From a virus, in the UHGV virus genome UHGV-0036582: a stretch of DNA of 64,000 nt; one strand, given 5' to 3'. Shown here in pieces: positions 17,343-57,413 of this stretch. The translations under genes were made by a program, and so were the position numbers. Every line of letters begins with the position of its first letter. Within the stretch, counting starts at the first letter, position 1. Below the pieces are notes generated by a model. It was not told the DNA's origin. It searched no databases and saw nothing but the letters and a program-made list of their open reading frames with translations.

Positions 17343-17417
17343 GATGGTGTAGCTCAGCGGTAGAGCAGTTGGCTGTTAACCAACTGGTCGGTGGTTCGAA
17401 TCCACCCACCATCGCCA
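17343..17417 (+). tRNA. tRNA-Asn (anticodon GTT)
   Basis: Hand-folded cloverleaf: acceptor gatggtg/caccatc, D-arm gctcagcggtagagc, anticodon stem gttgg/ccaac with loop ctGTTaa, T-arm ggtggttcgaatccacc, encoded CCA. Confidence 0.8.
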
Positions 17418-17422
17418 ATTTA

Positions 17423-17509
17423 GGGGAGTTAGTCCGTAGGGGCAGCGGGGTAGACTGTAAATCTACTGTCATTGCGACTCGGGTGGTTCGACTCCATCAC
17501 TCCCCACCA
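17423..17509 (+). tRNA. tRNA-Tyr (anticodon GTA), long variable arm
   Basis: Acceptor ggggagt/actcccc, anticodon stem gtaga/tctac with loop ctGTAaa, long variable arm, T-loop ttcgact, encoded CCA. Confidence 0.7.
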
Positions 17510-17513
17510 AATT

Positions 17514-17589
17514 GCCGGTTTAGCTCAGTTGGTAGAGCGCCTGCCTTGTAAGCAGGATGTCAGCGGTTCGAGTCCGCTAACCGGCACCA
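17514..17589 (+). tRNA. tRNA-Thr (anticodon TGT)
   Basis: Acceptor gccggtt/aaccggc, D-arm gctcagttggtagagc, anticodon stem cctgc/gcagg with loop ctTGTaa, T-arm agcggttcgagtccgct, CCA. Confidence 0.8.
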
Positions 17590-17814
17590 ATACAACGATA
17601 AGATCATTACGGTTAATCGTCGTTCATGTGCACAATGACTGGTCGAAAGGTAGTGATCTTACCGTTGTGGTGGATTCGCAGACTGATGCGATAGCTTTCT
17701 TGGATGTTAGGGAAATGCGGCCGCAAATCTTCCCTTTCGCGAGCGGTGATCGTCCGTAGTCCTAATTGGCTGCACCGTATGCCGGAGATTCAGTACCGGC
17801 CACCACAACGGCCG

Positions 17815-17901
17815 GAGAGTAGGGAGCATGGTGCTCAAGCGGTCTTGAAAACCGTCCCATTGCGCAAGCGATGATGGTTCGATTCCATTACTCTCCGCCA
17901 G
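17815..17901 (+). tRNA. tRNA-Ser (anticodon TGA), long variable arm
   Basis: Acceptor ggagagt/actctcc, anticodon loop ctTGAaa, long variable arm, T-arm gatggttcgattccatt, CCA; some stems rely on G-U pairs, so less certain. Confidence 0.6.
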
Positions 17902-37493: not shown

Positions 37494-37825
37494 AGGCCAT
37501 CCCATTCGCGCTGTTGTTCCTTTCTTCGATTGTTGTGGCCGACACCACTGTTTATCAGTGTGAAATGTCTGTAGCCGACGTTAAGAATGGCGCTCTTACC
37601 GACGTCATAAAAGCACCATATGGAGCGATGGTCGTAGACAGCGGCGACCAGTTCTATGTTGTGCGTGACGATCGAGTGTTGTCATCCCCATATCTCACAA
37701 ATCGTAATGGCAAATTAACCGGCGTCGGAGAAGACCACTTCGTATACAACAAATACAAGGGCTTCTATGGCGTTCACGCTTCTCAGCAAAGCTACCTTTT
37801 CGATGACTGCAAGGAGGTTGGGTAA
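37490..37825 (+). CDS. Secreted protein of unknown function
   Basis: Signal peptide MKAIPFALLFLSSIVVA; 111 aa; two Cys in the mature part. Confidence 0.45.
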   Translation: MKAIPFALLFLSSIVVADTTVYQCEMSVADVKNGALTDVIKAPYGAMVVDSGDQFYVVRDDRVLSSPYLTNRNGKLTGVGEDHFVYNKYKGFYGVHASQQSYLFDDCKEVG

Positions 37826-55688: not shown

Positions 55689-55750
55689 CTGTAATTAGCC
55701 TGCTTCTGTATATATAAATAACTACATATTAATTATTAATATACGGAAGC
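55689..55750. repeat. Second copy of the 17-bp-arm inverted repeat (agcctgcttctgtatat / atatacggaagcaggct)
   Basis: Arms share the core cctgcttctgtatat with the element at 8505-8562; one arm mismatch; AT-rich loop. Confidence 0.65.
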
Positions 55751-55836
55751 AGGCTGTTTTGTATCAGAGACTCCAGACCTGAACATCACTACAGAATCCA
55801 CTAGAACCCCTTCCCAGACGCTTTAAAATCGATTTT

Positions 55837-56091
55837 ATGAACCACTTTAAGGAAACCAACATGTCATACCCGACTAATGTCGTTGCGCTCGTAGAGAGCG
55901 ATTTTCTGGCCCAGGCTCGTGAAATGATGAAAGATCGTGAGCAGGCTTTCAACTTGTACGAATGGGCAATTAAGTGCTTGCATCTTGGCGAGCATCGCGA
56001 ACTTGTTGAACAGCTTTTAGGTGAGTTGATCAATGAGGTGTTTGCCTTGAATGTTCAACTACATGGTAGAGAAAATAATCAATCACAATGA
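55837..56091 (+). CDS. Hypothetical small protein
   Basis: 84-aa ORF. Confidence 0.4.
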   Translation: MNHFKETNMSYPTNVVALVESDFLAQAREMMKDREQAFNLYEWAIKCLHLGEHRELVEQLLGELINEVFALNVQLHGRENNQSQ

Positions 56092-56675
56092 TAGATAAGT
56101 ACAAACTATTCATAAAGTGAATTGTAAGTGCTAAGATCTGATAGTTTCCAGTCGTAGACTGGAGACTCGACCTGATGGGTGGGGGTAAGCGTCACTGGCG
56201 TCAGGTTTAAAAAAGCTCACTACCAGCGTAGAACTGGTGCCGTTTAGGTGTCGGGGAAGGGGGGAACCAAAGTGAGCAGAGACAAGGGTCACTTTATGAT
56301 TGTCGAGTCTGGGGTGTTTCGAGAGGTTGAATCCAGTACTCCCCTTCATAAAGTGTGGGAAGATCTCGGTTCTGGGGTGCTGTCATCCATAACTTCCCAA
56401 GTCTAAGCTGGCAGTAGACTTAGACCATAACTTTTCAGGTTATGAAACGACCAGGTTGGTGAGAGATTTTTATACTCACCTCCCTGGGAGAGTATTACCT
56501 GAAAAGACAACCTCTCACTTCGTTCGAGGTGAACTTCACTCACTTCGTTCGTTCAGTTCAGGTTTATAAAAACCTGTTCTGGGAAGTAATTTGTTTATTT
56601 TAATAATTATTAACACGCACGCGTGTGCGCACGCGCGAGGAAAAATCGGCGCGGCGCTTGATTCAGGAGTTTATA

Positions 56676-57265
56676 TGACGACGAAGACACCAGCCCGATC
56701 GCAAGCAAAAACTCGCAAAAAAGCCAAAAACAAAAATTCCCCCCGCACCAATCCCACAACGCCTGTCGTAGAGTTCAATCCCCAGCTTAAAACCGTGAAA
56801 ATCTTTAGTGATGGCTCTTGCCTTAAAAATCCGGGTGGCCCGGGCGGTTACGGTATCGTTCTCCAGTATCGTGGTGAGGAACGCGAGTTCTCAGATGGTT
56901 TTCATAGCACCACCAATAACCGCATGGAGATGATGGGGGCACTTATCGGGCTGGAGCGTTTGAAATATCCATGCAACGTTATTTTGCACTCTGATAGCCA
57001 GTATCTGAAAAACGGCATGACACAGTGGATGAAATGGTGGAAACGCAATGGATGGATGACTTCTGACAAAAAACCGGTAAAGAATGTTGATCTGTGGAAG
57101 CGTCTGGATGAGGCCGCAAGTCGACATAATGTTCGCTGGAAGTGGGTTAAAGGCCACGCCGGGCATCGTGAAAATGAAATATGCGATCGACTCGCGAAGA
57201 TCGCAGCTTTTTCAGCAGCAGATATGCCTCACAAGAAAGATATTGGTTTTGTTTATAATAAGTAG
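56676..57265 (+). CDS. rnhA: Ribonuclease HI
   Basis: Start set at the ATG at 56676; [26 protein letters not shown] and [20 protein letters not shown] match RNase H catalytic blocks. Confidence 0.85.
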
Positions 57266-57413
57266 TAAGTAAGTGTTTACCTATCATTTTAAATCATGTA
57301 TCTTATCGGCGTCAGGATGACAATGTGTCGGTAAGACACAGTTCCAGGATGGAACGAGAAAGGCGGCTGGCAATCGCCAGCCGCAACTCTTTCTGACACT
57401 GGATGGGGTCCAC

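Follow-up and report, generated by a model that had tools for sequence, protein, structure and literature searches.

The locus considered here raises the question of what is specified by a long interval that lies within an operon and appears to contain no protein-coding gene. The interval is part of a window of 64,000 nucleotides (nt) from the virus genome UHGV-0036582, and all positions given below without further qualification are those of this window. It extends from the stop codon of an upstream open reading frame (ORF), which ends at 56091, to the ATG of rnhA at 56675, a start codon that is preceded by a Shine-Dalgarno sequence AGGAG at 56665–56669. The initial annotation of the window described a non-coding gap of about 570 bp (56100–56675), a description that is borne out by our analysis, in which the exact limits of the gap are 56092–56674 (583 bp). 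It regarded an alternating purine-pyrimidine tract close to rnhA as the key feature of the gap, proposed that the interval may hold a non-coding RNA, a replication or packaging site, or a regulatory region, and named RNA sequencing (RNA-seq), an Rfam scan and comparison with relatives as the means of deciding among them. The feature that it overlooked is that about 450 nt of the gap are densely base-paired and extremely conserved. The first of its options, a non-coding RNA, is now strongly supported by covariation, a G-U strand bias, a conserved promoter and published RNA-seq data. On the evidence of fold, covariation, conservation and RNA-seq, it is very probable that the gap contains a structured non-coding RNA gene (56143–56590, + strand), and the best explanation of the locus, which we consider likely, is that this gene encodes a + strand non-coding RNA of about 450 nt that is specific to the SSU5/pHCM2-type phage-plasmids of Enterobacteriaceae.

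The window itself represents an SSU5/pHCM2-type phage-plasmid of E. coli, as indicated by the identity of a 1-kb stretch around the gap to "Escherichia phage CMS-2020a" (99.6%) and to Salmonella phage SSU5 (about 83%), and the phage-plasmid Cyrano of E. coli LF82 is 97–98% identical to it. When the E. coli copy of the gap was compared with the copies from SSU5, Klebsiella, Enterobacter, Salmonella and Cronobacter, the core of the RNA (56168–56590) was found to be 91–95% identical across these genera, whereas in the same comparison the identity of the flanking genes was only 75–76% for dam, 75–80% for the gene for a 76-amino acid (aa) protein (orf77) and 77–81% for rnhA. The RNA core evolves three to four times slower than the adjacent genes, and the gap sequence is therefore under selection in its own right. 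It is the best-conserved sequence of its neighbourhood, and nearly every nucleotide in it is under stronger purifying selection than the adjoining protein genes. The gap was found in 687 PLSDB plasmids, whose hosts are Klebsiella, Escherichia, Enterobacter, Salmonella, Citrobacter, Cronobacter and Shigella, as well as in 12 phage records and in 232 of 5426 complete E. coli genomes (about 4%). These records contain no annotation in the gap, except for one ORF call in Cyrano (CYRAN_81, hypothetical protein). A protein scan of genome contigs for more distant homologues yielded two close loci, and pattern scans of viral and metagenome sequences that excluded the main clade returned JZ38-clade copies only; the family is thus a narrow one. 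The most distant homologue of the 76-aa protein (45% identity) is encoded by a Moellerella wisconsensis plasmid (L113:2726–4148), where it is followed by 112 nt, a 113-aa ORF and a gap of 970 nt. As neither of these two gaps matches the RNA, it is absent or unrecognisable outside the Enterobacteriaceae.

Copies of the element for comparative analysis were gathered in four ways, viz. by means of a conserved 23-mer in IMG/VR, from annotated plasmids, from GTDB genomes, and from contigs encoding distant members of the 76-aa family. These copies cover at least five lineages (L096, L098, L099, the JZ38 clade and the main clade), with nucleotide identity extending down to about 50%. The fold of the + strand had a z score of -7.9 in relation to shuffled sequences, that of the - strand being weaker (z = -5.9). 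Using RNAalifold, a structure of 99 pairs, 31 of which showed compensatory double changes, was obtained from 22 non-redundant copies, and one of 102 pairs in 17 helices, of which 51 were compensatory, from 17 copies drawn from all lineages. When pairs were counted in the 17-copy structure, 96.9% of 1705 cells were paired, in comparison to 86.5% when the 3' partners were shuffled and 32–49% when the partners were slid by 1–3 columns. Double changes were present in 52 of the 102 pairs, as against 30.4 ± 2.4 in shuffled controls, none of 500 of which reached 52, and 7–17 when the partners were slid; the covariation score was 0.42, as against 0.22. A compensatory double change in at least one pair was seen in 16 of the 17 helices, the exception being H17. 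Both the magnitude of the effect and the slid control make it very unlikely that this covariation arose by chance. One contig that had been considered as a divergent copy, L102 (Logan contig from SRR8137545), was discarded, as it showed C-to-T changes throughout, apparently originating from bisulfite-treated reads; a contig of this kind mimics a divergent homologue and is to be excluded from comparative analyses.

The same alignment also provides information regarding the strand that folds. Among the paired cells there were 241 G-U and only 9 A-C combinations, and when the same helices were read on the - strand, 83.3% of the cells were paired versus 96.9% on the + strand. Due to this excess of G-U over A-C and the lower pairing of the - strand, the folded molecule must correspond to the + strand.

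A sigma-70 promoter of the extended -10 type is predicted upstream of the RNA at 56109–56137 on the + strand, consisting of a -35 element TTCATA (56109–56114), a TG dinucleotide (56129–56130) and a -10 element TAAGAT (56132–56137), with a spacing of 17 bp between the -35 and -10 elements. The pattern TGnTAnnAT is invariant upstream of the RNA in the alignment of copies, and a consensus scan independently called the homologous SSU5 promoter (TTTAAA-17-TAAAAT with TG; nine of 12 matches, where 0.3 such calls are expected). The position of these elements would place the start of transcription at about 56143/56144, some 7 nt past the -10 element and at the base of the first helix; the 5' end of the RNA is taken from this promoter, and its 3' end is placed somewhere between about 56589 and about 56660. 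One promoter-like site on the - strand (56150–56121) points away from the RNA and, as judged by eye, is not kept in the homologous SSU5 sequence. It was also observed that the -10 element TAAGATCT (56132–56139) overlaps a GATC site in the E. coli lineage only, directly 3' of the phage dam gene, the -10 elements of other lineages being TAAAAT or TAACAT without a GATC.

The helices of the RNA, all of which are on the + strand, can be described from its 5' end. The first of them, H1 (56143–56167; AGUUUCCAGUC-GUA-GACUGGAGACU), is a 5'-terminal clamp hairpin whose stem is kept though its sequence differs in almost every lineage, with double changes in four of the five pairs counted; as a typical 5' clamp, it would stabilise the transcript. 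It is followed by the long hairpin H2 with a G-rich 5' arm (56169–56207; GACCUGAUGGGUGGGG / CGUCACUGGCGUCAGGUU), which has 14 pairs, seven of them compensatory, and 98.3% of its cells paired, and in which several G-U pairs are invariant. The central multi-helix domain comprising H3–H14 (56216–56506) contains the near-invariant H10/H11 junction GGAAGAUCUCGGUUCUGGGG...CCAUAACUUCC (56356–56399), the hairpin H12 (56401–56425) and the extended hairpin H14 (56451–56487). Within this domain, formation of the local hairpin H13 (56426–56432 with 56438–56444) is incompatible with that of a long-range helix (56431–56440 with 56497–56506), and in the main, L099, JZ38, L096 and L098 lineages both pairings are preserved through paired indels or compensatory changes, among them a paired single-base-pair deletion in L099. 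From this pattern of substitutions, the RNA may act as a conformational switch between H13 and the long-range helix. The domain is followed by the twin hairpins H15 and H16 (56511–56560), which have the same loop motif UCACUUCGUUC(G) and which contain a direct repeat of the 13-mer CTCACTTCGTTCG (56514–56526 and 56539–56551, 25 bp apart). The loops of H15 and H16 share a YUUCGY core in all lineages, and compensatory changes were found in three of the six pairs of H16. The interval 56559–56589 is likely the 3' region of the RNA; it consists of a variable AU-rich hairpin CAGGUUU-AUAA-AAACCUG (56559–56576), the stem sequence of which varies, and a conserved 3' block UUCUGGGAAGUAA (56577–56589), where UCUGGG is invariant and the adjacent A nearly so. 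The UCUGGG block occurs three times in the RNA.

Evidence that the interval is expressed in lysogens is provided by a published re-analysis of RNA-seq data for E. coli LF82 (Cyrano) (Misson et al., PLoS Pathog 2023; PMC9928086). In this work, CYRAN_81 was reported to be 12-fold above the prophage background after overnight growth in LB, with a putative repressor listed alongside at 10-fold (PMC9928086). The S1 Table of the same study provides values in log2(fpkm+5), where fpkm denotes fragments per kilobase per million, for two replicates per condition and ten samples in total; the values for CYRAN_81 were 6.82 and 6.92 in LB overnight, 9.34 and 9.02 in a 1 h culture, 6.94 and 6.89 in a 6 h culture, 8.97 and 8.23 after 1 h in macrophages, and 10.35 and 10.30, the peak, after 6 h in macrophages, those in the same samples being 3.1–5.8 for the upstream gene CYRAN_80 and 2.6–5.0 for rnhA (PMC9928086). 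The CYRAN_81 interval, which lies inside the RNA, exceeds both of its neighbours by 8–40 times in all ten samples and rises about tenfold inside macrophages. This abundance over both neighbours points to a separate transcript, or to a processed species of great stability with its end ahead of rnhA; by either route, the transcript would end or be processed before that gene. In the same LF82 data, CYRAN_43, which is 723 times over background, was checked as a second RNA candidate and proved to correspond to a 184-aa ORF on the - strand.

The alternating tract that had been singled out in the initial annotation lies downstream of this RNA. Between the two there is an AT-rich spacer (56590–56612), which is variable in sequence and measures 20–60 nt in relatives. 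The tract, together with a conserved box CGCGAGG, occupies 56613–56640, and its alternation is perfect over the 25 nt from 56613 to 56637. The string acgcacgcgtgtgcgcacgcgcg by which it was recognised is indeed present, but at 56615–56637 rather than at 56623–56646, a slip of about 9 nt. The tract is the sole run of alternating purines and pyrimidines of at least 18 nt in the window, where 0.19 are expected from shuffles and none of 100 shuffles reached what is observed, and all type-1 lineages have it, whether or not they carry rnhA, with a length of 8–28 nt. As the sequence 3' of the tract differs among lineages, it constitutes a border between a conserved block and variable cargo, and not the main feature of the gap. 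The box ACGCGCGAGG was considered as a repeated operator and rejected, as it is not repeated above chance elsewhere. In SSU5, a GC hairpin that follows the tract (L002:4973–4985, equivalent to about 56645–56660 of the window) has a T-run on the - strand (TCGCGCGCCGCGA CGATTTTTTT) and resembles a terminator for leftward transcription, with no leftward gene nearby.

The locus is part of a long co-directional operon for replication and nucleotide metabolism, in which the order is nrdAB, thymidylate synthase (thyA), DHFR, a 3'-5' (epsilon) exonuclease, Dam methylase, the 76-aa protein, the gap and RNase HI. The gene for the 76-aa protein (orf77; phrog_5343; 55861–56091, + strand), for which an alternative start at 55837 would give 84 aa, is the sole gene that always adjoins the RNA. 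The family of this protein comprises 40 clusters, all of which are from SSU5-like phage-plasmids. The protein has a net negative charge, as counted from its sequence, and its AlphaFold2 (AF2) model consists of three helices (predicted local distance difference test, pLDDT, 82) with no fold match in PDB (best E = 4.6). A Rop-like or RNA-binding role of this protein was considered and rejected, in view of its acidic nature and of a three-helix model without a PDB match. The intergenic region between dam and orf77 contains a 17-nt inverted repeat AGCCTGCTTCTGTATAT / ATATACGGAAGCAGGCT (55697–55755; 94% complementary) with a 25-nt AT-rich centre, for which Rfam gives only weak, microRNA (miRNA)-like noise. 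At a greater distance (39 kb from the gap) there is a cluster of four tRNA genes (Asn-GTT, Tyr-GTA, Thr-TGT and Ser-TGA; 17343–17900); the Ser-TGA gene is below the Rfam gathering threshold, and only three tRNAs pass it in the whole window.

On the 3' side of the gap, rnhA (56675–57265, + strand) encodes an RNase HI of 196 aa with a basic N-terminal tail (Pfam RNase_H, E = 9.8e-45). The gap lies upstream of rnhA in the window, as stated in the initial annotation, but the element is not tied to this gene, since rnhA is replaced by other genes in L003, L004, L093, L096 and L101. The gene after the RNA is rnhA in the main clade and in L098, a gene for a 200-aa protein with no assigned function in L093 and L095, something else in KpT877, and one for a Tad2-like (anti-Thoeris family) protein in JZ38, L096 and L101. 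Because the downstream gene varies in this manner, the RNA is independent of rnhA, and the presence of a Tad2-like gene in lineages that lack rnhA indicates that the region 3' of the RNA behaves as a slot for variable cargo or anti-defence genes. The Tad2-like genes (PF11195, the anti-Thoeris sponge family) are located at L003:3529–3840, L096:3598–3912 and L101:3431–3742. A strong, bidirectional terminator-like hairpin GCGGCTGGC-AATC-GCCAGCCGC is found at 57363–57384, between rnhA and the next gene.

In sister phage-plasmids of Klebsiella and in one metagenomic contig, a homologue of the 76-aa protein (about 50% identical) is followed by a different non-coding element of about 480 nt. This second, or type-2, element (L112:2726–3306, L114–L117 and L100:2726–3437), after which there is either rnhA or a gene in reverse orientation, shows no detectable similarity to the RNA of the window and no Rfam match, and it is present in 30 PLSDB plasmids. 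Its fold has a z score of -5.4, it contains a covarying 5' hairpin, and 24 of its 149 pairs are compensatory in a set of only six sequences. Although the evidence for this second family is thinner, these observations suggest that the slot is a conserved position for a large RNA, or an "RNA cassette."

With respect to the function of the RNA of the window, the reading that we favour, as a tentative one, is that it is a trans-acting scaffold or decoy that binds protein in the plasmid-prophage state. The RNA would be made from the extended -10 promoter while the phage sits as a plasmid, and it would work in trans through its three-dimensional fold, as a scaffold or decoy that engages a conserved host or phage factor. 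The contact sites in such a mechanism would be the repeated exposed motifs, i.e., the two UCACUUCGUUC loops and the three UCUGGG blocks. That the sequence is almost wholly conserved in addition to the pairing suggests a tertiary structure or contacts with more than one macromolecule, and the motifs that are repeatedly exposed suggest putative binding sites; the scaffold or decoy is therefore preferred. The RNA seems neither to pair as an antisense RNA with sites in the phage genome nor to serve as a leader dedicated to rnhA. The number of 10-mers complementary to the RNA in the whole phage-plasmid genome was 117, compared to 114 ± 20 for shuffled RNA, and near-matches to the loop motif in the window numbered 9 versus 5.5 expected, a difference that is not significant. 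A single strong antisense duplex at 37647 was set aside, as the segment involved lacks conservation in SSU5.

A number of points weigh against the existence of a separate RNA gene of this kind, or against its action in trans, and need to be considered here. The structure was predicted from the same alignment in which its pairs were then counted, and this alignment represents some five or six lineages. The expression counts cover the 135-nt CYRAN_81 interval only, and they come from a library that may not have been strand-specific. The ends of the transcript are those predicted from the promoter and the sequence, and no canonical intrinsic terminator was called between the RNA and rnhA. It could also be that the abundant species arises from the operon mRNA by processing and is stable, or that it is a leader whose synthesis has been terminated. 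In addition, the sole constant neighbour, orf77, is acidic, without a recognisable fold in its predicted structure, and an unlikely RNA binder. Lastly, the covariation of two mutually exclusive helices is no less compatible with a cis-acting switch than with a scaffold.

The last of these points leads to the alternative that the RNA is a cis-acting leader or attenuator of the downstream cargo operon, whose two folds set read-through and whose terminated form is the abundant species. The RNA is co-directional with the downstream genes, no strong independent promoter of rnhA is visible, and an attenuator that is switched off would be expected to give just such an excess of RNA over rnhA (8–40 times). 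Besides the competition between H13 and the helix 56431–56440:56497–56506, there is also the 3' block UGGGAAGU, a repeat of the 5' strand of H10 that in three lineages is complementary to the 3' strand of this helix, although this complementarity shows no covariation in the JZ38 and L096 lineages. A leader of this type is nevertheless unlikely. The downstream gene is not conserved, and the one that comes next at the type-2 locus can lie in the reverse orientation. No aptamer or leader family in Rfam matches the RNA, which with its 450 nt and 17 helices is several times larger than known riboswitches and attenuators, and no terminator hairpin with a U-tract follows it. An even less probable explanation, essentially excluded, is that the conservation and the transcript are due to a small protein, such as CYRAN_81, or to the mRNA of a type I toxin. 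The mRNAs of plasmid type I toxins measure about 400 nt and are highly structured, Cyrano is annotated with an ORF of 44 codons (135 nt) inside the RNA, and in the window copy the longest ORFs of the gap are of 30–72 aa. However, none of the latter is kept across relatives, in accordance with the statement in the initial annotation that the gap has no convincing ORF, and all candidate ORFs in it are frameshifted by indels of 1–2 nt or interrupted by stops in several lineages. The frame of CYRAN_81 is intact in only 13 of the 22 non-redundant copies, being shifted by indels of 1–2 nt in the others, and no other ORF does better, ORFs of less than 20 codons being outside this screen. The variable sites are distributed over the three codon phases as 70/146, 65/144 and 79/142, i.e., without any 3-nt periodicity, so that no conserved small ORF with a coding signal, the finding that would have spoken for a protein, is present. 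The predicted peptide is hydrophilic and not toxin-like, and the gap shows no match to a Hok/Sok-type RNA. The "hypothetical protein" CYRAN_81 is therefore a mis-annotation of the RNA interval.

Another proposal, related to the replication or packaging site of the initial annotation, is that the interval is an origin-associated transcript, in which a G-rich RNA would open or prime a lytic origin by forming an R-loop, as for ColE1, T4 oriF and T7. The origin would consist of the twin hairpins, the AT-rich spacer and the Z-DNA-prone tract, and RNase HI would process the primer. The order of the elements (promoter, ORF-free RNA of about 450 nt, two repeated 13-mers, AT-rich stretch, GC-rich alternating tract, rnhA) and the location of the locus inside an operon for replication and nucleotide metabolism are both in its favour, as is an exact 27-nt copy of H15 that is found in an unrelated metagenomic phage, at a position resembling that of the lambda origin in a replication-initiator gene. 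In this phage (L026:6280–6370, identical in L017 and L053; IMG/VR), the H15 copy ACAACCTCTCACTACGTTCGAGGTTGT has beside it an AT-rich stretch as well as an alternating tract of 13 nt, ACGTGCGCGCACG. The copy is located in a linker of CAGTGAG repeats within a replication-initiator gene of 442 aa; its length exceeds what chance would produce, and it could reflect an ori-like module or horizontal exchange. For the locus of the window, however, no positive evidence for a replication or packaging site was obtained, the terminase and portal genes being located elsewhere. The cumulative GC skew rises monotonically through the locus without an inflection, although co-directional transcription could mask an origin in such a plot, and no antisense RNA I (RF00106) is matched on either strand. 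There is no iteron array, only the two 13-nt repeats, both of them inside covarying RNA hairpins. A lytic origin should be silent in the lysogen, yet it is there that the RNA is abundant, and the element persists in lineages without an adjacent rnhA. Further, the length of the tract is unstable, and the type-2 element lacks both the AT-rich spacer and the tract. The 241 G-U cells and the covariation over the whole 450 nt indicate selection on a folded RNA and not on a DNA site. For these reasons, we consider an origin-associated transcript to be improbable, more so than a leader, and the trans-acting scaffold or decoy continues to be the preferred, if provisional, reading.

The identification of this RNA is of interest because it is borne by clinically widespread phage-plasmids, which are known carriers of resistance genes and include hundreds of plasmids of Klebsiella, Enterobacter and Salmonella. 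Its role can also be tested directly, as E. coli K-12 and Salmonella LT2 are available as hosts and SSU5, PhiR41_1 and Cyrano as infective phages.

It remains to compare the RNA with known systems. The Rfam scan proposed in the initial annotation gave no family match in the gap: none of the 4227 models of Rfam 15 reached its gathering threshold there, and at E ≤ 10 the best matches in the region were chance-level miRNA and hepatitis C virus (HCV) models, far below their thresholds. A scan for tRNA and tmRNA found nothing in the gap, and searches of the literature, by topic and by exact sequence strings, yielded no description of this RNA. In comparison to the leaders of riboswitches and attenuators, it has no known aptamer and no conserved downstream gene, although alternative pairings do exist, through which it might yet function in the manner of a leader. 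Like the mRNAs of hok/sok type, it is plasmid-borne, close to 400 nt in size, heavily structured and expressed during plasmid carriage, but it has no conserved small hydrophobic toxin ORF and no Sok-like match. The resemblance to ColE1 RNA II consists of a promoter-driven, ORF-free, structured transcript of about 500 nt with G-rich segments and a connection to RNase H; however, there is no RNA I match, the replicon of these phage-plasmids is of the Rep-protein type (typed as IncFIB or rep_cluster), and the RNA persists in the absence of rnhA. The immunity RNAs c4 of P1/P7, CB of N15 and CI of P4 are likewise non-coding RNAs of phage-plasmid-type elements, lysogenic and co-directional with the downstream genes. 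These RNAs are of about 70–80 nt, are processed by RNase P and pair with sites in the same operon, whereas the RNA described here is about 450 nt long, does not match the Rfam C4 model and has no enrichment of complementary sites in the genome.

A closer parallel in kind is provided by GOLLD and ROOL, which also measure several hundred nt, have many covarying helices and no ORF, occur in temperate phages and have no known function. These RNAs are typically found beside tRNA genes and mostly in Firmicutes and their relatives. In contrast, the RNA of the window matches no model for them at E ≤ 10, its tRNA cluster is 39 kb away and its hosts are Enterobacteriaceae. With 6S and CsrB/CsrC, it would share abundance, stability, structure and repeated loop motifs, and action in trans on a host protein would be the analogy that we favour, although the 6S architecture and arrays of GGA loops are lacking and there is no Rfam match. 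The RNA is a member of none of the GOLLD/ROOL, c4/CB/CI, ColE1 RNA II and 6S/CsrB families. That it represents a new RNA family, with no relation to the RNA families described, is strongly supported; the novelty refers to the family and not to a mechanism, and the orphan large phage RNAs GOLLD and ROOL are precedents of its kind. Few bacterial or phage non-coding RNAs exceed 400 nt and show conserved structure at this density, and those of them with a solved function, viz. RNase P, tmRNA, 6S, omega and bridge RNAs, have each proved to play a distinctive biochemical role. It is possible, though we advance it with reserve, that the RNA of these phage-plasmids founds a new class of large structured RNAs. 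It would then be an effector of the plasmid-prophage state, induced inside macrophages, and the candidate jobs of its fold would include the sequestering of a host or phage protein for lysogeny or copy number, the neutralisation of a host defence, and catalysis, the job being one that has not yet been attributed to RNA in temperate phages.

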